NCBI GenBank assembly: GCA_040437565.1
Contig: JBDOQK010000027.1
Coordinates: forward strand, 248,001 to 312,000
DNA length: 64,000 bases
Origin: Albugo candida
Taxonomy: Eukaryota
Direction of reading: 5' to 3'
Under the pieces are notes generated by a model. The model was not told the origin of the DNA and searched no databases. It saw nothing but the letters and a program-made list of their open reading frames with translations. Numbering within the stretch: the stretch's first letter is position 1; each line of letters begins with the position of its first letter. Made by a program: the position numbers and the translations under genes. Below are positions 44,131-63,075 of this stretch, one piece after another.

Positions 44131-45641
44131 ATGGGCGCATCGAGTTCGTTCTGTTCAGCGATGATACCGTCGTCACAGGCACCTTCTGGCCGCACCGAAG
44201 ACTGTATCCACCAATCCAGTACCCCACCCAGTGCATACAAACCTCCCTACACGTCATTACAGCAGCAGGAAGCGGTCTATTTCCCTTCAAAATGCTCTGT
44301 TTCTGGCTCTAATCAAGAAAATGGGACAGAAAACGTCGATCTTTCTCGATTTATGGAAAATCAAAATACACATCAGCAGTTTATCAGACACTGTAGCGTT
44401 CTCTTAGCCGGAGGTATCGCTGGAAGCATCGGGAAGACGATCACAGCGCCACTTAGTCGACTCACTATCCTCTTCCAAGTTCATAGTATGGTGTCCTCGC
44501 GACATCGAGATCGTTTCTCAGATAGTGNNNNNNNNNNNNNNNNNNNNNNNNNNNNNNNNNNNNNNNNNNNNNNNNNNNNNNNNNNNNNNNNNNNNNNNNN
44601 NNNNNNNNNNNNNNNNNNNNNNNNNNNCAGTTTATCAGACACTGTAGCGTTCTCTTAGCCGGAGGTATCGCTGGAAGCATCGGGAAGACGATCACAGCGC
44701 CACTTAGTCGACTCACTATCCTCTTCCAAGTTCATAGTATGGTGTCCTCGCGACATCGAGATCGTTTCTCAGATAGTGTGTCCAGCGCACTGATGAAAGT
44801 TTTGAAGACAGAAGGCGTTCTAGCGCTGTGGAAGGGTAATGGAGCCAGCGTCGTCCATCGATTTCCGTATTCCGCTGTGAATTTCTTCACATTTGAGCTT
44901 CTTCGAAGCTCTATTGATCAGTGGAGACAGGAAATTGAGAGTGATACTATTGAAGAAGTAAGTTCAGTTGGTTCATGGAAGACGACGTTCTTGTCGGGGG
45001 CGATCGCTGGTGCATTTGCTACAATCGCATGCTATCCAATCGATCTGATTCGCACTCGACTGGCAACACAGCTGGACACGGAGAAAAGATACAATGGGAT
45101 TTTGCATGCCGCATTTCGCATCAGAGCCGATGAGGGATTTCGAGGATTGTATCGAGGGCTTGGAGCTACGTTGATGGTCACAGTTCCCAATTTGGCCATC
45201 AATTTCACACTTTTCGAAAGTTTGAAAGAATTCGCGATACAATATCGCTCCCATCAAACTGTAGAACTCGACTCTTTGGACACAATTTGCGGGAACGAAA
45301 ATTTGAATTTGAATTTCGACGATTATGACGAGCTTCAAGATTCAGACGAGGACGACGAAAGACTTGGTATCGCTGATACACTTCTTTGCGGCGGAGTTTC
45401 TGGAATCGCTTCTTCGCTTGTAACATTTCCTATTGATGTTGTACGCCGACGTCTCCAAATCTCAGGCATTCATTCTACGAACCCATCAGGTCTATTCACA
45501 ATTGCGTCTCAGCTGTTCAAAGAACAAGGTGTTCGTGGATTTTATCGCGGTCTTACTCCTGAGCTGATGAAAGTTATTCCGATGGTTGGAATCACTTTTG
45601 GAATGTTTGACAAGCTCAAAGGCTGGATGGATATTGATTAG
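44131..45641 (+). CDS. Mitochondrial carrier family (SLC25) protein; spans a gap with duplicated flanks
   Basis: Three repeats: LAGGIAGSIGKTITAPLSRLT, YPIDLIRTRL and FPIDVVRRRLQ, plus EG...LWKGNG, GLYRGLG and GFYRGL. The start codon is uncertain. Confidence 0.92.
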
Positions 45642-45785: not shown

Positions 45786-46457
45786 TTAGATAGCAACCGA
45801 TGAAGATGCGAAATTGTTTGGTAACGCTGCTCCCCATTCATTTTCAATCTGCATAAATATTCCCTCTGGCGGTGGCATGGGCACTTCCAGATTCCACGAT
45901 ATCTCATTGACCTCTTTCGCTCTCTTCCACGTGAGTAAGACTGTGTCATCCTCTTTTTTGCTCATAAGTGCATGAATCTCCCTCAATACCTGACCAAGCG
46001 TCCTATTGACTACTAAGAGGTGATTTATTGCATATAATGTGTCACCCACGCGCAATCCTCCGCTGGCTTCTCCGGGACCTTTTATCCCCTGCCACTCAGC
46101 GCCCTGCACACGATTCCGAGGCACAAGCCGATCACCATCCAGCCGATAGTAATCGATGATCACCACCTCTGCGGTTTGAGCGAATCGGTTCCCTTGAGTT
46201 TTCACCACGAGTCCGAGTCGTTTGAAGATATCGAGATGGTGAACCCGATTGGCTGTTTTGAATTCCAGTAAAGGTAACCCTCCGCGCACTCCAATTCGAA
46301 CGGTACGGTGCTGCTTCTCCGACGCCGGAAGTTTTCGATTATATGTCGGTATAAAGACCTGTGTTTGACGATCATAGCTCAGACTAGTTGCGTATACTGG
46401 ACCAGAAAGATAGCTACCTCGACCATAGCTCGGTATATGTGAAGGTGTATTTCCCAT
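45786..46457 (-). CDS. PDZ-like domain protein with possible N-myristoylation site
   Basis: MGNTPS start; LGLVVK...GPGEASGGLRVGDTLYAINHLLV...VLREI fits the PDZ pattern. Confidence 0.6.
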   Translation of the reverse strand: MGNTPSHIPSYGRGSYLSGPVYATSLSYDRQTQVFIPTYNRKLPASEKQHRTVRIGVRGGLPLLEFKTANRVHHLDIFKRLGLVVKTQGNRFAQTAEVVIIDYYRLDGDRLVPRNRVQGAEWQGIKGPGEASGGLRVGDTLYAINHLLVVNRTLGQVLREIHALMSKKEDDTVLLTWKRAKEVNEISWNLEVPMPPPEGIFMQIENEWGAALPNNFASSSVAI

Positions 46458-47484
46458 GGGTAAATGACGAGCGGAACGTATGCGTAACGGCGGAGATGAC
46501 TTGTTGATTCAGGTCAAGAGAGTTGAAATTCAACTTACGATTCTAACATCAGATTGGATATTATACAGAGCGGGGGTAACCGCATGAGTAAATACCATAC
46601 CTCAACCCGAAACCTTAGTATGGTGTACACCTGGTAAGATGAAATCATAAGGTTATTGATGTTTCATCCAATCAAATGACGCACAAAAGTTGTGAAAGTG
46701 ACTCAATCCCCCATGACGCCAGCAATGAAGTTAGAAAGTTAGATATACATTCCAATGTATCAATGTGACTCTATAGTGAGTTATTTCATTTCAAGTAGAT
46801 GGCAACATTCACTCTTGTGGCAACATCGATTGTTCACTATTCTTTCAAGCTGAGCACACTGCTACATTCCTTACATTCAGGCGACATTAAATAGTCTTCG
46901 ATATCGCGATGACTTCCTCTGACAGCTATTTGCATCGCTGTATCGCCCAAAGCATCTACTTGATTGGCATTCGCGCCGTGACGGATCAACGTCTCTACAG
47001 CCNNNNNNNNNNNNNNNNNNNNNNNNNNNNNNNNNNNNNNNNNNNNNNNNNNNNNNNNNNNNNNNNNNNNNNNNNNNNNNNNNNNNNNNNNNNNNNNNNN
47101 NNCATGGGTAAATGACGAGCGGAACGTATGCGTAACGGCGGAGATGACTTGTTGATTCAGGTCAAGAGAGTTGAAATTCAACTTACGATTCTAACATCAG
47201 ATTGGATATTATACAGAGCGGGGGTAACCGCATGAGTAAATACCATACCTCAACCCGAAACCTTAGTATGGTGTACACCTGGTAAGATGAAATCATAAGG
47301 TTATTGATGTTTCATCCAATCAAATGACGCACAAAAGTTGTGAAAGTGACTCAATCCCCCATGACGCCAGCAATGAAGTTAGAAAGTTAGATATACATTC
47401 CAATGTATCAATGTGACTCTATAGTGAGTTATTTCATTTCAAGTAGATGGCAACATTCACTCTTGTGGCAACATCGATTGTTCA

Positions 47485-48126
47485 CTATTCTTTCAAGCTG
47501 AGCACACTGCTACATTCCTTACATTCAGGCGACATTAAATAGTCTTCGATATCGCGATGACTTCCTCTGACAGCTATTTGCATCGCTGTATCGCCCAAAG
47601 CATCTACTTGATTGGCATTCGCGCCGTGACGGATCAACGTCTCTACAGCCACAAGATGACCAGCATTACATGCTTTCATCAGTGGCGTTTTTCTTTGACT
47701 GTTCATTGCATTGACTTGTGCTCCCGCGGAAAGCAAAGCATCTATTTGTTTAAAGATCCCTCGAGATGCTGCAAAGTGTAAGGGAGTGCTCCCACACTCA
47801 TCTTGCGTATCTGCAAGTGCACCCAATTCGAGAAGTCGTTCCGCGAGTGCAACACGACCGTGATTAACCGCGTGATGCAAAGCTCGTAAGCCCCCAAACG
47901 TGACACACTCTACATCTGCGCCTTGTGAAATGAGAAATTCCGCCACATCCAAATGCCCGTTGCGTGCAGCCCACGCCAGGCAAGTGCATCCAAAAGCGTC
48001 TCGTTGATTAATCGTCGGGAAGGAACCATCATTATGCGCTAATACAGATCGAAGCTGTCGTACATTCCCCGTCGCGGCCAGCTTAAACGGGTTTACATCG
48101 CAGTCGGGAGGCTCTTCCAACGACAT
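47485..48126 (-). CDS. Ankyrin repeat protein
   Basis: About five repeats: GCTCLAWAARNGH, GLRALHHAVNHG, GSTPLHFAASRG, KTPLMKACNAGH and GDTAMQIA. Confidence 0.92.
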   Translation of the reverse strand: MSLEEPPDCDVNPFKLAATGNVRQLRSVLAHNDGSFPTINQRDAFGCTCLAWAARNGHLDVAEFLISQGADVECVTFGGLRALHHAVNHGRVALAERLLELGALADTQDECGSTPLHFAASRGIFKQIDALLSAGAQVNAMNSQRKTPLMKACNAGHLVAVETLIRHGANANQVDALGDTAMQIAVRGSHRDIEDYLMSPECKECSSVLSLKE

Positions 48127-48207: not shown

Positions 48208-49683
48208 TCAAAATTCATATATGCTCCCAGGTTCTGATTCTGCTCCGCTCAGACCTAACGACTTGTTGGACAGCGTAGATTCTTTAGGATCTCGTTTGTG
48301 CACAGTGGGTATAGATCCCAAATTGACTTGATCCGATGCTTCCGAATTGGTGGAGGCTAGTGTAGAATGCTGAGGGTGGGGAGATAGATTGGCGTTCCTA
48401 CCCAATACTGAAATCGACAAATTCAGCCTAGAATCAGAATCTTCTTGTAATGTTTCCATGGTATGTGGACCTCCTTCTTCTCTATTCACGATATTCGGGC
48501 CCTGATTTCGTCCAGGGTAAGATGGAAAGAAGAAATCTGGCGCCGGTGCGTGCATGCCAAAAGGGACTTCGCCTGCTATTTGGTTGCTTGCATCAAAGTT
48601 TCCAAAAGAATGCGTGCGCTCAAAATCACAGGTAGATGAATCCTCAAAAGGATTGTATGTGCTTGTTTGAGCGGAAGAACGACTTTCGAGGTTCAGTGTA
48701 CCCGTTGACGCTCCAAAAGGTTTGTGATATTTATCGTTCTTATCAGACAGCATCTGATACGGTCGTCGCCCTAGTGCGTCCGGTGCTGAATGATTGCTAA
48801 GCTGTGATACATTGAGAACATCCTTATTATCGGCTGAAGTCTTGAAATTACTACCAGCCCACGGGTAATCCTGATTTTCGGCCACGCTGATTCCAAGCTT
48901 TGTGTGTGAAGATGCTGTTACCGAATGCTTCCCCTGTTGAATGGAGGTGGACATTGGACCATTGAGAAATTGATCCTCTCTTGTCTTTTGATTGCGACGT
49001 CGTCGAAAGTATCCAATCCCGACAAATAGCGCTACTAGACCAGCAAATCCTCCAATAGCGATCCCAACTAAAGCGCCAGTTGATAGACTGGAATCAGGCG
49101 GCTTCGATTGAAGTACAGTGGTGGTGGTAAATACCATAATATCATAACGTTGCATCCGAATATTTTGTCCCGCTAATATAACATGAGCAAAGACCGTGTA
49201 TTCTCCACCATGATCGAAAGAAATAGATTGGTGGAATGTGGACTCATCATTTGTGAAATTTGAAGTTTCTTGTGTGGCAACCTTTTTATCGGCGCCACTA
49301 CGAAAGATATCGCAAATGGTCGTATGCGAGCAAGAATGTATGTTGGCATGTACTATTTCGGCTGGGCGTCCAGTAAAAGGATCGCGCGCTGTATACAGCT
49401 CATCCAGATTAAATTTATTCTTTCGATTACGTTTGACCGTGAAATCGTACGGAACCAATTCCATCTTAGGAACTGGCCCTTCCATTGCTTGAGATAAGGC
49501 GATTGTTACGGGGCACTCTTCATTTTTGCCCACGTCATGAATATAAGCAGAATCTGCATTTTCGACCTGTAGGCCTTGATCCAGGAAATAACAGTACGTT
49601 GTTCGAGCATCAAACTCGTAATCTATCGCGTATATACAGGATAAGAGGGTGGCTAAAAGATTGATGCGATGATACCTTACCAT
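48208..49683 (-). CDS. Type I membrane protein (signal peptide, Cys-containing ectodomain, single TM, disordered tail)
   Basis: N-terminal hydrophobic INLLATLLSCIYA; TM ALVGIAIGGFAGLVALFVGIGYF followed by RRRR; Ser-rich tail with no kinase motifs. Confidence 0.75.
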   Translation of the reverse strand: MVRYHRINLLATLLSCIYAIDYEFDARTTYCYFLDQGLQVENADSAYIHDVGKNEECPVTIALSQAMEGPVPKMELVPYDFTVKRNRKNKFNLDELYTARDPFTGRPAEIVHANIHSCSHTTICDIFRSGADKKVATQETSNFTNDESTFHQSISFDHGGEYTVFAHVILAGQNIRMQRYDIMVFTTTTVLQSKPPDSSLSTGALVGIAIGGFAGLVALFVGIGYFRRRRNQKTREDQFLNGPMSTSIQQGKHSVTASSHTKLGISVAENQDYPWAGSNFKTSADNKDVLNVSQLSNHSAPDALGRRPYQMLSDKNDKYHKPFGASTGTLNLESRSSAQTSTYNPFEDSSTCDFERTHSFGNFDASNQIAGEVPFGMHAPAPDFFFPSYPGRNQGPNIVNREEGGPHTMETLQEDSDSRLNLSISVLGRNANLSPHPQHSTLASTNSEASDQVNLGSIPTVHKRDPKESTLSNKSLGLSGAESEPGSIYEF

Positions 49684-50410
49684 ATAAAAGATTATTGGAA
49701 TCGACTGTCGCGAGGAAGGATACAGTCAGCACATATGATAGAACTATTCTTGAGAACCTTATGTGACCAGATGCGCTCATATTCTCTCGGTAAATAGCGT
49801 TCGACGATTGCCAAAACGATTTGTATAGAGTCCGGGAAGCGGATGTGGATTTAGATCAAATGTTGTAAGAAAAGACACGGTTATCCTGTAACAATGTAGA
49901 AATTTGGCTGCTCCGTCTTTTTCATTTATATAGAGTTCAGAGCGCATTTTCTCCCATGAGCGTGATTAGGTAGATTACTTGCGAAATAAGCGAACATAAT
50001 GAGCGACAGGAATAGCGTAAAGACGATTTGGGCGGCAAGGTTAAAAGCTACAGCCCAGCCGATCGTTAGTCACTGAGAAGTTACACTCGCTTCTATGTCT
50101 CTCTTCACCCGTAAGTTGACCGAATGTTGGCCGAAAGGAAGCCTTCTAAAATTTCGTGACGGAAGTGTGATACATCACGACCTTAACATGGGTATCCTTG
50201 CACAAATGAGAAGTTGCTGACTCTATGTCATCGACCCTGTAAGATGTATCCCCAGAAAACGATCCCACTTCTCCAATTTCGCGTCGTATACCCCGTAAAT
50301 GCTAAAACTAAACAATCAACCTCCTATGACGTGGACAGTTCGGTTCGCTATGAACGACTTTTACTAATCATCAACTGATTTGAAGATCAGTTTCGAAAAT
50401 TTATACAGAA

Positions 50411-51826
50411 ATGCGAGTAGTAGCGGTCTTTTTGTTGTCGAACTTCATACTGAGCGCTTGCGCTTGCGGGCATCATCAACGTGTCTGGGCGCAAGATCGA
50501 TCTTCACGCTCACTTTCCACTTTGACAGATTCAGCAGAACCAGGAAGCAAATGTCCTTCATGTGGAATGTCTACACTGGAAATGGGCTACGATAATCACA
50601 ATTATGTTGAATTTATGAATGGCCAACGGATTTATACTTGCGGTATGGAACCCAGATCATTTGAGGCATACACATTTCAAGTGACAGACACTGCGTACAT
50701 TGCAGCCAATGTGGTATGTTAATGCACTTATATGTTTATCTATGTACTTATTTTATGATTACAGGCCGAATTCATCAGCAAAGATCCCAGCGATTGTACT
50801 AATGATTGTACACTGTGCGCTTCAAACAGTTTACGAGATCCCATCGATGGAAAAGTCGTCGCATCCAACGCTTTTTACTTTGTGTGTCTCAATAAAGGAC
50901 AAAAAGTATTTTTCGCTTCTGAGGCGAATAAAGCAAAGTATCTCGAAAATGTCAACAAAGATGTTCGATATCTTGTTACAAACACGATATGTAGTTTGGT
51001 CGTTTGTCAAGATGCGATGAAAATCACAGTTTTGAGTCCCGCAGCGAAAGCGTTCACGCCGAAATCACAATTGAAAACTTCGTCGTCAAATAAAAACGCC
51101 CAAACAGATCAATCCGGCAACTCTGGTAATTTAGTGAAAACTTCTTTGGCGAATAGACATCACGATGCTGCACGATTTTGCACTGGAGAGGGAACCGTAA
51201 TGTTCAACGGATTTCAGTTGACCGCGAATGGATCATGTGTTCGACTCTTTTTTACCTCTTGGGTTCTCAACAGTGGATTCAAGTACGCTTTGGGGTTTAT
51301 TGGTATCTTCTTGATCGCAGTGTTCAATGAGTTTTTAGCAACATTCCGGGAACAATTTCGTCAAAGATTGAGAGAAATACCTCCTTCAACTCGTTATGCT
51401 CAATTTGGAAAGAAAGGAATGCTGGTCTCATTATACATGCTCCAGATGACCATCGCGTACTTTGCAATGTTAGTGGTCATGATATACGAGACTGGGCTCT
51501 TCATTGCGCTCATCTTAGGCTTCTCCACGGGTTTTTTGCTTTTCAAAAACTTGGATCAAGATGTGACGCACGAGCGCGGAAATTGGCGTTACACGGACCC
51601 ATCGACAGTGTGTTTACATGTTGAAGGGATGAATTGCATGAAGAACTGCGGTTATACAATCGAAAATGCATTACGAAAAGTGAATGGAGTCACTCGCGCC
51701 GTTGTTGATTTTAACGAGAAGAAAGCGTACGTGGCAGGTACAGCGGATTTCAATGATATTTTGGCTTGCATTGAAGCGATCGGATACTCTGCTCGCATTG
51801 AAGCCGGAAATACGCTCGGCCCATGA
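50411..51826 (+). CDS. Ctr copper transporter with signal peptide, Cys-rich YHS/TRASH-like ectodomain and C-terminal HMA domain (2 exons, ~454 aa)
   Basis: Intron 50714-50764 joins the ORFs in frame. Ctr motifs MFNGF, LFFTSW and AYFAMLVVMIYETGLFIALILGFSTG (MxxxM, GxxxG); HMA LHVEGMNCMKNCGYTIENALRKVNGV. Confidence 0.88.
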
Positions 51827-52034
51827 TATGGATAGCCACAATGTCGTAGAGCCAGGCTGTTGCGAGTGCGATGATTGCATGCTCGACAATCATTTTTCGA
51901 ATAATTTGATGTATATACTTTACTGAATAATATAGACCTTCCAGAATGAATGATTCGAAAATATACGAATCAAATTCTCGCGATCTTTTCTTCCAACAGA
52001 TCTTTGATTCATTATTATTCTACGCTTTGATTTT

Positions 52035-55000
52035 ATGTCACAAAGCACAGAAACCGATCTATTTGATACTCATAAAGCTGCAGATATGTCTGATAAGGAT
52101 GCAAACTCCACTAATGAAGGTGGGAAGTCTGTGCCTCAATCCCCTCTCACCGTATCGACCGCAAATACGCCTCCAACGACAACAAACACAGTTTCCTCAC
52201 CAAGAAATGAATTTTACGTGTCACAACGCATGACCCCCGACTTCGAATCCAATCGTATCAACTCACTTTCCGTTGAGGAGCAAGAAATCCTCGCAAACAT
52301 TCAGGACTTACAGCTCCAACTCATGAAGGTAAGATTCTTCAGTGAATTGTTACAATTATATGACTTGCAGACCTCAATTCACTTGCACTTGCTAATGTTG
52401 AACTTGCGCAGTTGCGCGCTGAACATGACGAAGACAGCGAGGATGAAGAACACTCGCGTTTTGGACCAACGGCTCTTTCTTCGTCCATGTTGAACAACAT
52501 CAATCCTCTTCCCTCCAGCCAGCTGATTATTGTGTCCAACACACTGCCTATCGTCTTGGAGCGAGTTCCACAAACAGGAAGATGGAGAGCGATCAAAACC
52601 ACTGGTGGATGGGATAAATTAATGTGCCTTACAGACGTCAAAAACAACCTACAATTTATTTGGATCGGACACGTCGGTCAGCACATACCGAAACACGAGC
52701 AGGATGAAGTGAGGCGGCTACTGAAGAAACATAATTTCGTACCGGTATTTTTCTCATCGGAAAGTGTTACAAATCGGTACAATATTTTCTCTTCGGAAGT
52801 GCTTTGGTCCCTTTTTCATTATGTGGCGGAACCAGTGGCGACATCCACATTTTCAGCGCATGGAAATGGAGCTTGTGCCTCGCAATTTTATGCATCGAAA
52901 AGATTTAATAAACAAGACTGGAGAGCCTATGAAGCAGCCAATGAGAGTTTTGCGGATACAATTGCTGAAGTTTACAATGAAGGAGACTCGATCTGGATTC
53001 ACGATTATCATTTGATGCTACTGCCAGAATTATTGCGTCTACGGATTCCATCGTGTTATATTGGATGGTTTCTGCACTCACCTTTTCCAACATCCGATGT
53101 TTACACTCGAATCCCTGTGCGATCGCAATTACTGACTGGTGTTTTGCAAGCGGATTTGGTCGGATTTCAGACGTTTGATTATGAACGACACTTTTTATCA
53201 GCATGCAAACAATTACTCGGTGTCGAGTGCTCTTACCAGGTGATTCGCTCTCCGTTGGCAGATCGAGACCACTTTACCTCTATCGGGGTTTTCCCTATTG
53301 GCATCAGTATCGAACCGTTTGCAAAAGCGGCTGCTAGTGTATCGACACTGCATCGCGTTGATGAATTGCACCGTAAATTTGGTGACAAACGTATCATTTT
53401 GGGCGTTGACCGCTTNNNNNNNNNNNNNNNNNNNNNNNNNNNNNNNNNNNNNNNNNNNNNNNNNNNNNNNNNNNNNNNNNNNNNNNNNNNNNNNNNNNNN
53501 NNNNNNNNNNNNNNNCTGACTGGTGTTTTGCAAGCGGATTTGGTCGGATTTCAGACGTTTGATTATGAACGACACTTTTTATCAGCATGCAAACAATTAC
53601 TCGGTGTCGAGTGCTCTTACCAGGTGATTCGCTCTCCGTTGGCAGATCGAGACCACTTTACCTCTATCGGGGTTTTCCCTATTGGCATCAGTATCGAACC
53701 GTTTGCAAAAGCGGCTGCTAGTGTATCGACACTGCATCGCGTTGATGAATTGCACCGTAAATTTGGTGACAAACGTATCATTTTGGGCGTTGACCGCTTA
53801 GACAATGTGAAAGGTATCCCTCACAAGTTGTTGGCAATGGAATGCTTGCTGGAAAAGTTTCCAGAATGGCAGAACAATGTCGTTCTGGTACAGATTGGAA
53901 TCACATCGCGGTCCGGTGGAGCAGCGAATGACACGGGCATCATGGAAAACACCGCTTCAGACACTTGCTCGAGTACTAAAGAAGGGAACGAGTCTGTTTC
54001 TGGAACGGAAGCATCCGCATCGGAAGAAACAAGAAACTTGTCCAAAGGCGAGTCTGATGGGATACACTCTACAAAGAAAAGCTCACTGCAACCGTCTACC
54101 AGTGAGCTACAACAGGAGATGAGCTCGAATAGCTATCGCAATTTGCTGTCACACGTCAATCAACTTGTTGGTCGTATCAACGGGACATTCGGTGGCTTGC
54201 ACTATGCACCTATCCATTTCCTACACCAAACATCCACTTCACACGAAGAACTCTGTGCTCTGTACGACCTGGCGGATGTATGTTTGGTTACGTCGACAAG
54301 AGATGGCATGAATCTCGTTTCACACGAATTTATCGTCTGTCAGCAACATTTCACGAGGCGGAAAGATCATCGTCATAATTTTGAAGCTTCCCCAAAGAAG
54401 GATATATCGTCACAAAAGGCAAATGATTCCCCATCTTCGTCAAGTTGTCAAAATCCCAAACCAGGCGACCCAACGTCTATAGCCGTCTCACCGACAAACA
54501 TCCTGACGCAATGGGACGGAGAAGAGGGAGGCCCAGGTGTGCTAGTTCTCAGTGAATTCGCTGGATGCTCGCATTCTCTCAGTGGAGCCATTGTTGTCAA
54601 CCCTTGGAATACCGAGAATGTAGCTCTGACTGTTCACCAAGCGCTGGGTATGTGTCGAACCGAACGTGAATTGAGGCAACAAAAGCTTTACCGTTATGTT
54701 TCCACCAACACAGCAAAAGCTTGGGGACTTCAATTCCTGAATGCATTGAGTAATGCGGCTAACAAAAATCGTGGCGATACCAGACAATTACCCAAATTGG
54801 ATCAAAAAGCCATTATGGAATCGTACCGAAACTCTGAAAATCGCGTGATCATCCTAGACTACGATCGGTCTCTATGCCCCCAACACTCTTCGCTGCTCCC
54901 CCTTGCGGCTGTCGGGCCCAATTTCAAATCCCTTTTGGATGCACTAAGCGCGGATCCTCGCAACACTGTCTTTATCGTGAGTGGACGAGAAAGAAAGTTT

Positions 55001-57302
55001 NNNNNNNNNNNNNNNNNNNNNNNNNNNNNNNNNNNNNNNNNNNNNNNNNNNNNNNNNNNNNNNNNNNNNNNNNNNNNNNNNNNNNNNNNNNNNNNNNNNN
55101 GAAGAAACAAGAAACTTGTCCAAAGGCGAGTCTGATGGGATACACTCTACAAAGAAAAGCTCACTGCAACCGTCTACCAGTGAGCTACAACAGGAGATGA
55201 GCTCGAATAGCTATCGCAATTTGCTGTCACACGTCAATCAACTTGTTGGTCGTATCAACGGGACATTCGGTGGCTTGCACTATGCACCTATCCATTTCCT
55301 ACACCAAACATCCACTTCACACGAAGAACTCTGTGCTCTGTACGACCTGGCGGATGTATGTTTGGTTACGTCGACAAGAGATGGCATGAATCTCGTTTCA
55401 CACGAATTTATCGTCTGTCAGCAACATTTCACGAGGCGGAAAGATCATCGTCATAATTTTGAAGCTTCCCCAAAGAAGGATATATCGTCACAAAAGGCAA
55501 ATGATTCCCCATCTTCGTCAAGTTGTCAAAATCCCAAACCAGGCGACCCAACGTCTATAGCCGTCTCACCGACAAACATCCTGACGCAATGGGACGGAGA
55601 AGAGGGAGGCCCAGGTGTGCTAGTTCTCAGTGAATTCGCTGGATGCTCGCATTCTCTCAGTGGAGCCATTGTTGTCAACCCTTGGAATACCGAGAATGTA
55701 GCTCTGACTGTTCACCAAGCGCTGGGTATGTGTCGAACCGAACGTGAATTGAGGCAACAAAAGCTTTACCGTTATGTTTCCACCAACACAGCAAAAGCTT
55801 GGGGACTTCAATTCCTGAATGCATTGAGTAATGCGGCTAACAAAAATCGTGGCGATACCAGACAATTACCCAAATTGGATCAAAAAGCCATTATGGAATC
55901 GTACCGAAACTCTGAAAATCGCGTGATCATCCTAGACTACGATCGGTCTCTATGCCCCCAACACTCTTCGCTGCTCCCCCTTGCGGCTGTCGGGCCCAAT
56001 TTCAAATCCCTTTTGGATGCACTAAGCGCGGATCCTCGCAACACTGTCTTTATCGTGAGTGGACGAGAAAGAAAGTTTATCGAAACTTGGCTCAACGGTG
56101 TTCGCGTTGGTGTCGCAGCTGAAGACGGATTTTTTTATCGCATGAATCTGCAGAATTCACGCGAGCGCTGGAAGACAATGAGCAAATTCCAATACGACGT
56201 CGCAAGCAGTCGTGTGTATGGCAGTAGCTCTGCCAGCACAGTTGGACCACTCCATTCAGGCGATTCTGGAGTAGAGAACACGCGAAAGAACAGAAGTATG
56301 AGCGTTGGAAGTGGCAGTATCCGTAGCCGAACATCTATGAGTCATCAGGGAAGTGCAGCGAGTCCTACATCGGCTACTACTCGATACCCACCATCCACGA
56401 CAGGTTTATCGGATGCAGACGAATCTGAACTCGCGGGAGCGACAAGCGGAGGAGTTGAGTATTTAGATGTTTTCCAAGAGTGGTCTCGCCCTGAGGATGA
56501 AGACAATATGTCGTGGAAGAACTTGGTGCTACCTACGATGGAATTGTTCACCGACAGAACACCTGGTAGCTACATCGAAGAGAAAGAGAGCTCCTTGACG
56601 TGGCACTATTGCGACGCTGACTCTCAGTTTGGCAGTTGGCAAGCAAAAGATCTGCAAATCATGCTCGAACGCCAATTGATTGGTACTGCGCTGGATGTTT
56701 ATCAAGGCCAATTCTTTGTGAGCGTGGAGCATGAAGGATGCACAAAAGCCAAGGTTGTGGAGGGAGTCTTGAAATATTTATCGCTGCCACAGCAACTCGC
56801 GGCGAAAAATATGAAGGAAGTGGATTTCGTATTATGCGTCTGCGATGACGTATCCGATGATCAAATGTTCCAGACGCTGCATACGTTATTCCTCGAATGT
56901 CGAGAACGTCATGAACGGCGAAGTCGCGAGGAACGTGATGCAATGACTCGGCCTAAAGAATCGGCAAACAGCAAGATTGATGGAAACTCAAGCTTGAAAG
57001 TGTCGCCTTTAGAAACGCTCGAGAAGAAGAAGAAATCGTTGACTGCGACTGCAACCACAGAAGAAGAGAAAGAATTGGAATGTTTCGAAGACCAAGATCC
57101 CGATAATATGGTGACGTTCAGTCGACTGCACAAAGTTCCCGTCCGTATGTCAAATGCTGCCTCTATATTCACCGTCGTCGTTGGTAGTGATGTGCGTCAT
57201 AGCGGAAGCTCCAGTCGGCATCAACGTGCGTGTGTGGTGGATTCTCTGGTCGATGTGCGGAAGGTTCTGCGCGAATTTGTAGATATCAGCGCATCTCAAT
57301 GA
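52035..57302 (+). CDS. TPS: Bifunctional trehalose-6-phosphate synthase/phosphatase (GT20 + HAD); two artefactual internal duplications
   Basis: VSNTLP, WIHDYHL, FLHSPFP, LGVDRLDNVKGI, RDGMNLV and LSEFAG; TPP part LDYDRSL, VSGR, RTPGSYIEEKE and CDDVSDDQMF. Intron ~52329-52411. Confidence 0.93.
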
Positions 57303-57452: not shown

Positions 57453-58874
57453 TCAAAGCAGCTCGTAGAAATACTCGAGACCTATGATGATATCCATGTC
57501 AATCAGGAGCAAAGTACACGGAAGGCCTCAAGTACCTTGTCCAAGCTCCCAAATAGCGACTCCAGCGCAAGACCGCTCCTGAATGAGCACAAATCGATCG
57601 CGTAGGAATTCAAGACAAGGATAGTATACGCGGTGAAGATGGTCGTGCTCCTTGTATTTGAAGAAGCATTCCTGTGACCCAAAGTGAGTTTCGAATGAGT
57701 GGAATTGCAGTGGACATACGTGAGCATTGGAATCCCATTGCAGTGAGCCATTCGGGTCGGTTGCCTGAGCAGAACGCAATACTGAAAGGTAGGAAGATCC
57801 AATGATGGCGTCTACATCTTCCGACGTTTAGCAACACACTTTGAAAGTACACAGGCCGCCACCATTGTTATCGTAGCCGTAAAATGGGATTCCAATCAAC
57901 AGCTTGGAACGATGCCTGGCGGAAATACGATCCAGCGTCTTTGATATCCAATAAAGCGGTGCGTTAGGCCCCGGAGCCTGATAGTCGTACGCATTCATTG
58001 AGAAGCGATGGACCACTGAAGCGAGACGATCCAACATCTCGGACGTAATCGCTGGCGTTCCCTTCCGATAAAGCATCAGAAACAACTCCATCGCGACTCA
58101 AACTCACATTTGCTTGACTCTTCCCAATAACAAGAATGAGGATTTTCTTTGCGTCTTTAAGAGATTCTCCAAGCGATATGATGAAATTCAGAACAAGCGC
58201 ATGTAATGGAATCTATACATATCACAAGTGAGCGTCGTATCGCTATTTCCCAAAGCCAAACCTCGAGAGTGATCCCATCGAATTGGTGCTTTACCACCTC
58301 GTCGATAATTGTGTCAACCACATCAGAAACATGAGCTTCGTCCCACGTTTGACGTTCGTAGATCACTCGTGGGACAATTTTCGCATCGGTTTGAGTTCTT
58401 CTCATCCAATCTTGATCGACATCATGGGATCCTGTCAAGATGAATCCGTTGGATACATGGTCACGAATCTACAAATGAGATCAGCCTTTTGACCGACAAG
58501 GAGGTGGCTTAGGCTCACCTGATACCAAACCGGGACGATATATGTCAGTGTTTTACGAAACCGTTCAGCCATGTCATAGCCTTGACCGTTCCATGGTGTC
58601 ACGTATCCCAAAGTCTCCAGCGGAAATTTCTTTTCATGCTCAAAACGTGAAGAGGACGTTAACGACCGGGTGATGATTTCAGTGAAACTTCGCGTAAGTT
58701 TTGTATCGGTATTTCCTTTGCACTGCTCTGATTCATCGATACTGCAGGTCTCCGTATCGGCATTCGTCTATGCAAAGAGTGGTAAATCAGATGGAAGGCT
58801 GAGGATACGTCACAGACACTTTGGAAGCGAGAAAGAGGTTGAAGCAGACAGATGCAAAGCAGAGAGTATTTCAT
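57453..58874 (-). CDS. CHID1: Chitinase domain-containing protein 1-like (GH18, probably inactive), secreted, multi-exon
   Basis: Signal-like [46 protein letters not shown]...[23 protein letters not shown] and YFYELL*. Confidence 0.85.
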
Positions 58875-58938
58875 TCGAAGAAGACTTCTATTTAGACAGA
58901 TAATATCGACATACCCGACAATTACGACTTATTCGACA

Positions 58939-60231
58939 TTATGGAAATGATGGAATATTGACCCAAATTAGTGCGATTGCTACGAGCATGTACGCAGTGA
59001 TAAGCATGGATCCTTCGAGCCAATTGGATTTTCCATCGGCAATGATGGCGTACGCGATGATCACCGACATCATGTAGATCAATATCTCAAACTCTGGAAA
59101 CGCTAATGTCATGGGTTGACCCATGATCCAACCAGCGATGACGACCACGGGTACAACAAAGAGAGAAACTTGAGTCGCGGAACCCACAGCCACACCCATC
59201 GCAAGTTCCATTTTACCATTTCGTGCAACACGTATAGCGGTTACATGTTCCACTGCGTTTCCGATAATTGGTAATAATATGATACCCACAAATGATTTGC
59301 TCAGATTCATATTGGTTGTAAATCCATCGATGGAAGATACCAGAAACTCGGAAAATATGGACACGATTATGGTTGCCCCTAACAAAACGACCGCACTCGC
59401 TCGTTTCGATAGTTCCACTTGCTCTTGCGTCCCTTCTTCTCCTTGAAATATATGTGAATGAGTATGTAGCTGAAAAATCAATAGTTGTGCATACATAAAC
59501 AATAGAAATAATGCAGCGATTCGAGACAACGCCAATGTTCTTTTCATTTTCTCGTCCTGTGTCTCATGATCCGAGAAGTAATAAATGTACGATGGAAGAA
59601 GCATTGCGAAGCTTGCCAGCATCAACAGAGAGGAATTCGCACTGGCACCCACCGCATTAAATACATTCTCAGTAGTTGACATCCCACCAGCGATAAAACT
59701 GCATCCGAGTACAAGCAGTAGATTTGACAAAACTGAGCCAATTAATGAAGACTGCACGACCGCGATTTCTCCCTTACTGAGCGCGAGCACAGCCACAACC
59801 ACTTCCACCGCGTTTCCAAATGTCGCGTTTACCAAGCCACCGATAGTTTCACCAGTGTGAATAGCCAGCGCTTCCGTTGCTTCACCCAGAACATTTGCCA
59901 GTGGTATCATTACAATGAAATTGAGTGTGAAAATCCATGTATCGTTCCAATGCGCCACGTACGACCAGATAGCGAACGGCGCAAAGAATAGCAAGATATT
60001 CAGTCTGGATCCAAATAATAGATTTTTTATAGCTGTTAAATCCGCTCTCCAGGACTGATGTATACTACTTCCCGATTCATAAGACGAACGCAACAAAGAG
60101 ATGCGTTCCCGAGAATTTTTTGCAAAACCGTGTAGATTCGACAATTCCGGTACGCTGCTTTCGTCCGCGCTGTTAGAACTTTGCTGCTGTCGAGCCTTAC
60201 GAATTGACGCATTCGCTTGTCGTGTGTGCAT
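58939..60231 (-). CDS. CAX: Ca2+/H+ exchanger (CAX/VCX1 family)
   Basis: Alpha-repeats GGLVNATFGNAVE and LLPIIGNAVEH, plus GSVLSNLLLVLG, GSATQV and DGKSNWLEG; about 11 TMs. Confidence 0.95.
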   Translation of the reverse strand: MHTRQANASIRKARQQQSSNSADESSVPELSNLHGFAKNSRERISLLRSSYESGSSIHQSWRADLTAIKNLLFGSRLNILLFFAPFAIWSYVAHWNDTWIFTLNFIVMIPLANVLGEATEALAIHTGETIGGLVNATFGNAVEVVVAVLALSKGEIAVVQSSLIGSVLSNLLLVLGCSFIAGGMSTTENVFNAVGASANSSLLMLASFAMLLPSYIYYFSDHETQDEKMKRTLALSRIAALFLLFMYAQLLIFQLHTHSHIFQGEEGTQEQVELSKRASAVVLLGATIIVSIFSEFLVSSIDGFTTNMNLSKSFVGIILLPIIGNAVEHVTAIRVARNGKMELAMGVAVGSATQVSLFVVPVVVIAGWIMGQPMTLAFPEFEILIYMMSVIIAYAIIADGKSNWLEGSMLITAYMLVAIALIWVNIPSFP

Positions 60232-60591
60232 TCTCAGCGACTCACGAAAGTGACTATTTCAAGCGAATGCGAAACAGTTCAGCGACAAGTGCGTATAGTA
60301 TACACTCGCATGTCTTTTTGTCACCTTCCAATCGCTAAAAGCTGATTGAGGACTCGACATCAATAACATGAAATATTACGTTAGAGCACTGATAACAAGT
60401 ATCAAATGGAATCATTGCAAACGGTTCCGATGCTGTGATGCGACCACTCCTGTCGGTCGCAGTACGACATGGCCTCAGCTCTAGATCCTACNNNNNNNNN
60501 NNNNNNNNNNNNNNNNNNNNNNNNNNNNNNNNNNNNNNNNNNNNNNNNNNNNNNNNNNNNNNNNNNNNNNNNNNNNNNNNNNNNNNNNNNN

Positions 60592-63075
60592 ATGGACCAC
60601 TGAAGCGAGACGATCCAACATCTCGGACGTAATCGCTGGCGTTCCCTTCCGATAAAGCATCAGAAACAACTCCATCGCGACTCAAACTCACATTTGCTTG
60701 ACTCTTCCCAATAACAAGAATGAGGATTTTCTTTGCGTCTTTAAGAGATTCTCCAAGCGATATGATGAAATTCAGAACAAGCGCATGTAATGGAATCTAT
60801 ACATATCACAAGTGAGCGTCGTATCGCTATTTCCCAAAGCCAAACCTCGAGAGTGATCCCATCGAATTGGTGCTTTACCACCTCGTCGATAATTGTGTCA
60901 ACCACATCAGAAACATGAGCTTCGTCCCACGTTTGACGTTCGTAGATCACTCGTGGGACAATTTTCGCATCGGTTTGAGTTCTTCTCATCCAATCTTGAT
61001 CGACATCATGGGATCCTGTCAAGATGAATCCGTTGGATACATGGTCACGAATCTACAAATGAGATCAGCCTTTTGACCGACAAGGAGGTGGCTTAGGCTC
61101 ACCTGATACCAAACCGGGACGATATATGTCAGTGTTTTACGAAACCGTTCAGCCATGTCATAGCCTTGACCGTTCCATGGTGTCACGTATCCCAAAGTCT
61201 CCAGCGGAAATTTCTTTTCATGCTCAAAACGTGAAGAGGACGTTAACGACCGGGTGATGATTTCAGTGAAACTTCGCGTAAGTTTTGTATCGGTATTTCC
61301 TTTGCACTGCTCTGATTCATCGATACTGCAGGTCTCCGTATCGGCATTCGTCTATGCAAAGAGTGGTAAATCAGATGGAAGGCTGAGGATACGTCACAGA
61401 CACTTTGGAAGCGAGAAAGAGGTTGAAGCAGACAGATGCAAAGCAGAGAGTATTTCATTCGAAGAAGACTTCTATTTAGACAGATAATATCGACATACCC
61501 GACAATTACGACTTATTCGACATTATGGAAATGATGGAATATTGACCCAAATTAGTGCGATTGCTACGAGCATGTACGCAGTGATAAGCATGGATCCTTC
61601 GAGCCAATTGGATTTTCCATCGGCAATGATGGCGTACGCGATGATCACCGACATCATGTAGATCAATATCTCAAACTCTGGAAACGCTAATGTCATGGGT
61701 TGACCCATGATCCAACCAGCGATGACGACCACGGGTACAACAAAGAGAGAAACTTGAGTCGCGGAACCCACAGCCACACCCATCGCAAGTTCCATTTTAC
61801 CATTTCGTGCAACACGTATAGCGGTTACATGTTCCACTGCGTTTCCGATAATTGGTAATAATATGATACCCACAAATGATTTGCTCAGATTCATATTGGT
61901 TGTAAATCCATCGATGGAAGATACCAGAAACTCGGAAAATATGGACACGATTATGGTTGCCCCTAACAAAACGACCGCACTCGCTCGTTTCGATAGTTCC
62001 ACTTGCTCTTGCGTCCCTTCTTCTCCTTGAAATATATGTGAATGAGTATGTAGCTGAAAAATCAATAGTTGTGCATACATAAACAATAGAAATAATGCAG
62101 CGATTCGAGACAACGCCAATGTTCTTTTCATTTTCTCGTCCTGTGTCTCATGATCCGAGAAGTAATAAATGTACGATGGAAGAAGCATTGCGAAGCTTGC
62201 CAGCATCAACAGAGAGGAATTCGCACTGGCACCCACCGCATTAAATACATTCTCAGTAGTTGACATCCCACCAGCGATAAAACTGCATCCGAGTACAAGC
62301 AGTAGATTTGACAAAACTGAGCCAATTAATGAAGACTGCACGACCGCGATTTCTCCCTTACTGAGCGCGAGCACAGCCACAACCACTTCCACCGCGTTTC
62401 CAAATGTCGCGTTTACCAAGCCACCGATAGTTTCACCAGTGTGAATAGCCAGCGCTTCCGTTGCTTCACCCAGAACATTTGCCAGTGGTATCATTACAAT
62501 GAAATTGAGTGTGAAAATCCATGTATCGTTCCAATGCGCCACGTACGACCAGATAGCGAACGGCGCAAAGAATAGCAAGATATTCAGTCTGGATCCAAAT
62601 AATAGATTTTTTATAGCTGTTAAATCCGCTCTCCAGGACTGATGTATACTACTTCCCGATTCATAAGACGAACGCAACAAAGAGATGCGTTCCCGAGAAT
62701 TTTTTGCAAAACCGTGTAGATTCGACAATTCCGGTACGCTGCTTTCGTCCGCGCTGTTAGAACTTTGCTGCTGTCGAGCCTTACGAATTGACGCATTCGC
62801 TTGTCGTGTGTGCATTCTCAGCGACTCACGAAAGTGACTATTTCAAGCGAATGCGAAACAGTTCAGCGACAAGTGCGTATAGTATACACTCGCATGTCTT
62901 TTTGTCACCTTCCAATCGCTAAAAGCTGATTGAGGACTCGACATCAATAACATGAAATATTACGTTAGAGCACTGATAACAAGTATCAAATGGAATCATT
63001 GCAAACGGTTCCGATGCTGTGATGCGACCACTCCTGTCGGTCGCAGTACGACATGGCCTCAGCTCTAGATCCTAC
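60592..63075. repeat. Direct copy of 58008-60491 (5' part of CHID1 plus whole CAX) across an N gap; probable assembly artefact
   Basis: Offset 2584 nt; the ORF translations are identical in both copies, and the copies end and begin exactly at the gap edges. Confidence 0.9.
61523..62815 (-). CDS. CAX: CAX exchanger, second (probably artefactual) copy
   Basis: Identical 430 aa translation to 58939-60231. Confidence 0.5.
   Translation of the reverse strand: MHTRQANASIRKARQQQSSNSADESSVPELSNLHGFAKNSRERISLLRSSYESGSSIHQSWRADLTAIKNLLFGSRLNILLFFAPFAIWSYVAHWNDTWIFTLNFIVMIPLANVLGEATEALAIHTGETIGGLVNATFGNAVEVVVAVLALSKGEIAVVQSSLIGSVLSNLLLVLGCSFIAGGMSTTENVFNAVGASANSSLLMLASFAMLLPSYIYYFSDHETQDEKMKRTLALSRIAALFLLFMYAQLLIFQLHTHSHIFQGEEGTQEQVELSKRASAVVLLGATIIVSIFSEFLVSSIDGFTTNMNLSKSFVGIILLPIIGNAVEHVTAIRVARNGKMELAMGVAVGSATQVSLFVVPVVVIAGWIMGQPMTLAFPEFEILIYMMSVIIAYAIIADGKSNWLEGSMLITAYMLVAIALIWVNIPSFP

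Follow-up and report, generated by a model that had tools for sequence, protein, structure and literature searches.

Gene structure and domain architecture

A gene that almost certainly encodes a Cu(I) channel of the Ctr family, with additional domains on both sides of the channel core, lies on the plus strand at positions 50411..51826 of the DNA analysed here, a 64,000-nt stretch of Albugo candida contig JBDOQK010000027.1 (GCA_040437565.1, forward-strand positions 248,001 to 312,000) that we call the window and whose numbering is used throughout. Joining the two exons (Table 1) yields an open frame of 454 amino acids (aa) that includes all the motifs of the initial annotation, which had predicted a single spliced protein of about this length combining an extracellular pair of YHS/TRASH-like modules, a Ctr core and a cytosolic HMA domain. 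The removed intron (51 nt, GT..AG, 24% GC) is found at the same place in a paralogue from the same genome.

Contigs from three of the four runs (X1, X3 and X11) omit exactly these 51 nt, as anticipated initially, and the intron-less contigs are single contigs extending over 50171-51938 or 50081-51875, that is, the entire coding region; run X9 retains the intron. Because their records are identical, X1 and X11 probably amount to one observation, and the RNA label is a tool guess for X1 and X3 and missing for X11, none of the runs being recorded as RNA. The contigs over the Ctr gene end at 51875 or 51938 and those of the next gene begin at 51974 or 52043, so that exon 1, the channel and the HMA domain form one transcript unit. 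The alternative considered initially, that exon 1 or the HMA part belongs to a separate gene, is ruled out, given that one contig spans them all. Position 51633 is C in all four runs and A in the assembly, which changes N391 to T; the residue sits in the HMA loop, where Thr is present in many homologues, and the difference is either a strain variant or an assembly error.

Table 1 Features of the Ctr-family gene (window coordinates)
Feature	Position	Strand	Basis
Exon 1, aa 1-101	50411..50713	+	Spliced frame and contigs
Intron, 51 nt, GT..AG	50714..50764	+	Skipped in X1/X11 and X3, kept in X9
Exon 2, aa 102-454 and stop	50765..51826	+	Spliced frame and contigs
Hydrophobic leader, probable signal peptide	50411..50464	+	Hydropathy, crude -3,-1 rule
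Short His-containing leader, R-S-L at aa 33-35	50465..50545	+	His/Met-rich in orthologues
Module 1, YHS/TRASH-like, C48 C51 M53 C77 M79	50546..50713	+	Conservation; NosL spacing
CxxxCxxC (C112, C116, C119), putative disulfide cysteines	50795..50818	+	Conservation
Module 2, ligand-poor YHS/TRASH-like repeat (DP...GQK.F.S), C142	50831..50956	+	Pfam, profile comparison
C177 and C182, closing the folded ectodomain	50990..51007	+	Conservation, ectodomain model
Variable Ser/Thr/Asn-rich linker, with non-conserved RHHD at 51155-51166	51047..51175	+	
Pore vestibule: C240, M247, C259	51176..51274	+	Conservation; M247 in modelled trimer interface
Ctr core, TM1-TM3	51275..51547	+	Pfam, conservation, trimer model
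TM2 M336xxxM340	51467-51481	+	Conservation, model
TM3 G353xxxG357	51518-51532	+	Conservation, model
Cytosolic HMA domain	51602..51802	+	Pfam, fold match
M390xC392xxxC396 loop	51629-51649	+	Conservation

The Ctr channel core

The identity of the channel rests on sequence and modelling. In the domain scan, Ctr (PF04145, 51.7 bits against a Pfam cut-off of 25.3) and HMA (PF00403, 34.4 bits against 24.8) behaved as initially expected, whereas YHS (PF04945) remained at 14-17 bits, below the cut-off of 30.3, with 17.1 bits for module 2 and no row for module 1. Three transmembrane (TM) helices are indicated by hydropathy and appear as three long helices in the structure model. The MxxxM motif of TM2 and the GxxxG motif of TM3, both recognised from the start, are present in 62 of the 63 homologues, and M247, E290, M329, M336, M340, G353 and G357, as well as C259, in all 22 aligned rows. 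M247 is the conserved Met that precedes TM1, located about 25 rather than about 20 residues upstream of this helix because of a Cys-bracketed insert.

Met triads of this type are the selectivity filter of CTR1 (PMC10392627). The initially proposed trimer modelling, performed on three copies of residues 236-447, gave a score of 0.72 compared to 0.00 for the best of three controls, the contact agreement being 69% and pLDDT at least 69. The score mark was attained by 20 of 30 solved homo-pairs and 1 of 23 monomers, and this pass may stem from the model's memory of solved Ctr trimers. In the model, M336-M336 and M340-M340 touch across chains, and M247 lies in the interface.

The Albugo protein shares with the Ctr/SLC31 family (human CTR1, yeast Ctr1/3) the three TM helices, MxxxM, GxxxG and the pre-TM1 Met, as well as the trimer with Met triads (here in the model only) and, in its orthologues, the His/Met leader. 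It differs from these proteins in the probable signal peptide, the folded TRASH-pair ectodomain, the Cys-bracketed vestibule loop and the HMA domain fused in place of the short C-terminal Cys/His tail.

A tandem of YHS/TRASH-like modules in the ectodomain

The ectodomain modules probably adopt a TRASH-like fold, in agreement with the initial assignment. An HHalign value of 94%, over only 19 columns, relates the two modules to one another, as had been proposed, and values of 97.9% and 97.6% link modules 1 and 2, respectively, to repeats of 18 YHS-labelled proteins. A hidden Markov model of the YHS-labelled repeats, a comparison that is partly circular, retrieved the modules at independent E-values of 0.006 and 0.003 among 2009 open reading frames, the best unrelated frame being at 0.96. 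The Pfam YHS threshold is passed by two of the 13 proteins scanned, the distant relatives P0082 (55 bits) and P0093 (46.8 bits), the former being a Diphylleia protein that is also a Ctr with YHS repeats. Of 33 profile matches, two (P0079 and P0088) were removed as apparent repeat-driven noise.

An orthologous ectodomain was modelled as a single unit (pLDDT 90.4, pTM 0.85), and the module fold matches ribosomal chains over ~40 residues at a root mean square deviation (rmsd) of about 2 A. Other searches were less informative: the PDB sequence search with the ectodomain profile returned weak zinc-finger and unrelated rows only (best E 0.012), the Phytophthora ectodomain had no usable match in the ESM Atlas, and the fold searches yielded no MerB or T4MO-YHS chain among the matches listed, which excludes nothing. 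For P0093, all named clusters among the ESM Atlas matches listed were YHS/TRASH, with scores of 0.84 or less, which we treat as a lead only.

The modules have in common with YHS/TRASH domains (PF04945, eL24 and those associated with Cu-ATPases) the [C/D]PxxG...GQ.[Y/F].[C/S] pattern along with the ~40-residue fold match. Unlike typical members, they are extracytoplasmic, whereas YHS is described as cytosolic (PMC4626032), occur as a pair, have the fourth ligand replaced, contain extra Cys residues and score below the Pfam cut-off. The conserved Cys residues 112, 116, 119, 142, 177 and 182 would most simply form three disulfides, and, judging from conservation, C112, C116 and C119 are probably engaged in such bonds.

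A candidate metal site with NosL-type spacing

YHS/TRASH metal sites are reported to consist of four ligands, C/D-C-C-C (PMC4626032). Module 1 supplies three of these (C48, C51 and C77), with P81 at the fourth position and the invariant M79 nearby, and module 2, in which D126 is the sole counterpart, has no ligand set. The invariant set of module 1 is CxxCxM-x23-CxM: among the rows with a residue, C48 is conserved in 63/63, C51 in 61/61, M53 in 63/64, and C77 and M79 each in 66/66. The spacing is that of C59, C62, M64 and C88 of NosL, with a 29-residue offset in 43 of 52 homologues; the Zn and Cu(I) ligands reported for NosL are C59, C62, M64, C88, D92 and M145 (PMC8457098). The ectodomain also shares with NosL (PDB 7og7) the extracytoplasmic tandem TRASH arrangement in which the first repeat (CxxCxM-x23-C) is rich in ligands and the second is poor in them; it differs in being fused to a channel rather than lipid-anchored and in lacking a significant sequence match.

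These similarities raise the possibility that the ectodomain came from bacteria as a genuine homologue of NosL. The comparison with 8 NosL sequences, however, gave an HHalign probability of 6% (score 22.7, the maximum of 100 shuffles being 19.2) and covered module 1 only; the aligned sequences contain no counterpart of Asp92 or of M145 in the GxMG of the second NosL repeat; and other oomycete Ctrs have their modules in the opposite order, which suggests that YHS units were paired in tandem independently. Pfam scans of the Albugo protein and its relatives produced no NosL row. Bacterial acquisition is accordingly the least probable of the alternatives considered here, and the domain may work like NosL without being classifiable as NosL, given the 6% match and the missing counterparts of D92 and M145.

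Leader, linker and the role of the ectodomain

Going by hydropathy and the crude -3,-1 rule, the probable signal peptide ends at aa 16 or 18. The initial premise that canonical Ctr proteins have no cleavable signal peptide is not upheld in that form, such peptides having been predicted for Plasmodium Ctr proteins (PMC3528452). In most full-length orthologues, the hydrophobic leader is followed by a His/Met-rich stretch (up to 11 His); only a few have it reduced, among them the Albugo gene, where the reduction is strong, so that the family as a whole has not replaced its His/Met ectodomain, contrary to the initial annotation. The CACGHH motif highlighted there is indeed present, but C17 and C19 are not conserved, and RHHD occurs in two of the 63 homologues, one being the same gene and the other having the motif at a non-homologous place; CAC and RHHD were therefore dropped as conserved metal sites.

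In 40 of 52 homologues, an RxL/M motif (50507-50515 here) precedes the first module by 10-20 aa, compared to a mean of 7.3 and a maximum of 15 in a shuffle control on these related rows. Phytophthora RXLR motifs are reported to be cleaved after Leu (PMC11754927), and, by analogy, the His/Met leader may represent a propeptide that is removed by cleavage. An X-X-His arrangement resembling the amino-terminal Cu and Ni binding (ATCUN) motif follows signal cleavage in 20 of 37 leaders under a crude, His/Cys-biased rule; it is ambiguous in the Albugo protein, and we do not rely on it.

Conservation of the candidate ligands suggests that the ectodomain binds copper in uptake, which we consider fairly probable. 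The protein could instead be an ordinary Ctr in which the ectodomain is a disulfide- or Zn-stabilised structural cap, which would leave copper capture to the Met vestibule together with the His/Met leader. Such a cap would be compatible with the retention of the leader in most full-length orthologues, the missing ligand set of module 2, the metal-free YHS of toluene-4-hydroxylase (PMC4626032) and the reported lack of a phenotype in Chlamydomonas without the free CTRA protein CTR3 (bioRxiv 10.1101/2023.10.19.563170). It accounts less well for the invariant M53 and M79 beside three Cys residues, which suit soft Cu(I) better than a purely structural site, for the Albugo protein, which lost most of the His/Met leader yet retains all five candidate ligands, and for the existence of free secreted copies of the module pair. 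We therefore regard a purely structural role as rather unlikely.

The HMA domain and its links to P1B-type ATPases

The C-terminal domain fits the cytosolic HMA prediction not only by its Pfam score but also by its ferredoxin-like fold, which it shares with CopZ/Atx1 and the HMA domains of P1B-type ATPases (PF00403; rmsd about 1 A). Unlike CopZ/Atx1, it is tethered to an importer and has a CxxxC loop, the motif being MxCxxxC rather than MxCxxC. The CxxxC form is present in 59 of the 63 homologues, and the canonical GMxCxxC or CxxC in none of the 63.

The best non-Ctr match of this domain in the genome (36.6 Mb searched) is the first N-terminal domain of a P1B-type ATPase (tblastn 49%, E 5e-10), which has the same MxCMKNCG loop; the two share 29 identities over 66 positions compared to 16-21 with three canonical domains. 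In the tree, which includes three outgroup rows only, all CxxxC domains join at 97/69, under the starred support level. Two genes assigned to the P1B-type ATPases from sequence (C12:117073 and C13:63454) have N-terminal HMA domains of the CxxxC type and, closer to the membrane, canonical CxxC ones. The search for longer proteins with HMA, which bears on CxxxC ATPase domains outside this genome, returned two proteins only. Among the 11 HMA matches in the genome, a lower bound, there is no stand-alone Atx1-like gene. The 329-bp contig C6662 holds two tandem pieces of canonical CxxC-type HMA with deviating composition, possibly an ATPase fragment or a contaminant.

Two roles can be envisaged for the tethered domain. 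As a cytosolic copper sensor or buffer, it would close or internalise the channel at high copper, a function compatible with everything else proposed for the protein. It is placed ~20 residues after TM3, the trimer model shows no confident interface contact for it, and the C-terminal Cys/His motifs of Ctr proteins are regulatory in other systems; since the Albugo protein lacks the C-terminal HCH/CC motif, the HMA domain may simply replace it. The loop shared with ATPase N-terminal domains of the same genome and the lack of a free Atx1 among the HMA matches instead favour a domain that accepts copper and passes it forward. We rate the chances of the forward acceptor as even, and those of regulation as slightly lower.

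Distribution, paralogues and free forms

The gene is a real, expressed-looking representative of a pan-oomycete Ctr variant. A survey of the architecture, one of the checks suggested initially, detected both Ctr and HMA labels in 57 of the 63 homologues (194 to 618 aa), and all homologues named to organism are from oomycetes, from Saprolegniales to downy mildews. Among the named relatives, the closest is a protein of Albugo laibachii with 85% identity over the HMA region, encoded by a gene that is syntenic with respect to the downstream trehalose-phosphate synthase. In the A. laibachii model P0102 (UniRef F0WPX5), the Ctr gene is fused to this downstream trehalose-phosphate synthase/phosphatase gene, which is probably an annotation artefact yet shows the synteny; in the window, such a fusion is ruled out by the separate contigs.

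Five Ctr genes were found in this genome. Two are long and include HMA, the other three are short, and the module pair is present in four of the five, in differing orders. The long paralogue (C12:276979-279592) is head-to-head with a shorter Ctr gene bearing two Cys/His-type modules, and two further Ctr genes are head-to-head on contig C59. Beyond the Ctr fusions, the module pair is found in free oomycete proteins (P0066, P0068 and P0069) that combine it with a signal peptide, a Ser/Thr linker and, at the C-terminal end, a hydrophobic tail similar to a glycosylphosphatidylinositol (GPI) signal; free copies are present in downy mildews, P0075 is a C-terminal fragment only, and no stand-alone module-pair protein was found in the A. 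candida genome. In eight of 38 matches (P0116, P0118 and others), the module pair is fused to a PF13883 domain, and both fusions inspected, one of them a Bigelowiella model, have a signal-peptide-like start.

The topology would also fit an intracellular Ctr, vacuolar or lysosome-like, that draws on copper stores and has its TRASH pair facing the lumen, and five Ctr genes could share roles of this kind. The signal peptide, the His-rich leader, the Ser/Thr linker and the free copies with GPI-like tails all point to the cell surface, however, and we consider an intracellular location improbable.

Other features of the window

The divergent gene upstream (48208-49725, minus strand) is an open reading frame resembling a single-pass membrane protein, with no Pfam match at E <= 0.001. 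Eight exact tandem duplications flank 100-N gaps (8 of the 12 gaps in the 64-kb window) and are scaffolding artefacts that duplicate parts of genes; they include 44377-44778, 46455-47650, 53132-53799, 54023-56078 and 58008-63075, plus three more.

Relation to described copper transporters

The fusion itself is already in print. Strenkert et al. describe a cluster of protist CTR proteins with a C-terminal HMA domain and an 'unannotated' N-terminal domain, with an Albugo candida example (bioRxiv 10.1101/2023.10.19.563170). The gene analysed here very likely belongs to this cluster, and the cited example may be this gene or a paralogue. The architecture is mentioned there but is uncharacterised, in line with the initial statement that no characterisation was known. 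In both descriptions, the N-terminal domain also exists as a free secreted Cys/Met/His protein; the free Chlamydomonas form (Cre05.g236039) is reported as a CRR1 target (bioRxiv 10.1101/2023.10.19.563170). This protein was not recognisable among our matches, and no Chlamydomonas name is among the matches listed. As far as the available text of that study goes, the domain is left without a fold, ligand set or experiment, in contrast to the YHS/TRASH assignment made here.

In our literature search, which left subscription journals largely uncovered, we found neither a functional study of the architecture nor any naming of the domain as YHS/TRASH; among the best-ranked results, nothing linked YHS to CTR, and the work of Strenkert et al. 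was the sole mention of the architecture. New here are the tandem YHS/TRASH assignment, the NosL-spaced ligand set, the free forms with GPI-like tails and the ATPase-type CxxxC HMA domain.

Two other systems show analogous solutions. The Chlamydomonas CTRA-CTR proteins (CTR1 and CTR2) and CTR3 likewise feature tandem Cys-rich folded ectodomains and a free secreted copy, but no HMA domain is described for CTR1/2 in the text available, and the authors of that study consider the protist domain unrelated to CTRA (bioRxiv 10.1101/2023.10.19.563170). In Cryptococcus, Cbi1/Bim1 is a GPI-anchored partner of Ctr1 (PMC9258870) and thus, similarly, a surface copper-binding protein with a free form that feeds a Ctr; it is also fused to fungal CTRs according to Strenkert et al. 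(bioRxiv 10.1101/2023.10.19.563170). Unlike the Albugo modules, Cbi1/Bim1 has a fold like that of lytic polysaccharide monooxygenases, with a histidine brace.

A model of copper capture and hand-over

We favour, with moderate confidence, a mechanism in which the protein is a surface Cu(I) importer with capture by the leader and module 1 and with the HMA domain as the acceptor. It would be a homotrimeric oomycete Ctr-family importer bearing its own donor and acceptor domains. Sequence and model support a pore built from the three TM helices of each chain, with the M336 and M340 triads as the gate and M247 at the entrance. Conservation and fold support a compact YHS/TRASH-like pair on a flexible linker, located outside the membrane and preceded by the signal peptide and the His/Met leader. 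Module 1 (C48, C51, M53, C77, M79) would bind Cu(I), perhaps next to a structural Zn like that of NosL, and module 2 with the six other Cys residues would act as a disulfide-stabilised scaffold. The linker could allow copper captured by the leader and module 1 to reach M247 and the Met triads. At the pore exit, the tethered CxxxC HMA domain would take up and buffer Cu(I) before releasing it to an acceptor, for which the CxxxC domains of the organism's P1B-ATPases are the most plausible candidates. The capture and chaperone roles, like both hand-over steps, are inferred.

More speculatively, and with considerable doubt, the tandem TRASH could be an undescribed copper-scavenging domain of oomycetes and scattered protists, with a Zn/Cu(I) site of the NosL type, and would be used in Ctr fusions as well as in free proteins that are GPI-anchored or secreted; in oomycetes, a CxxxC HMA domain derived from the Cu-ATPase would then mediate direct importer-to-exporter hand-over and make a soluble Atx1 unnecessary.

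Copper hand-over by Ctr proteins is usually studied with transient partners, whereas here the donor, the channel and the acceptor reside in one chain; the candidate sites are small and well defined, and both hand-over steps are open to deletion tests and two-domain biochemistry. If true, the model would provide the first function for eukaryotic extracellular YHS/TRASH domains, would assign a fold to a domain that work on algal copper lists as unannotated and would describe how oomycetes, obligate plant parasites included, acquire copper.
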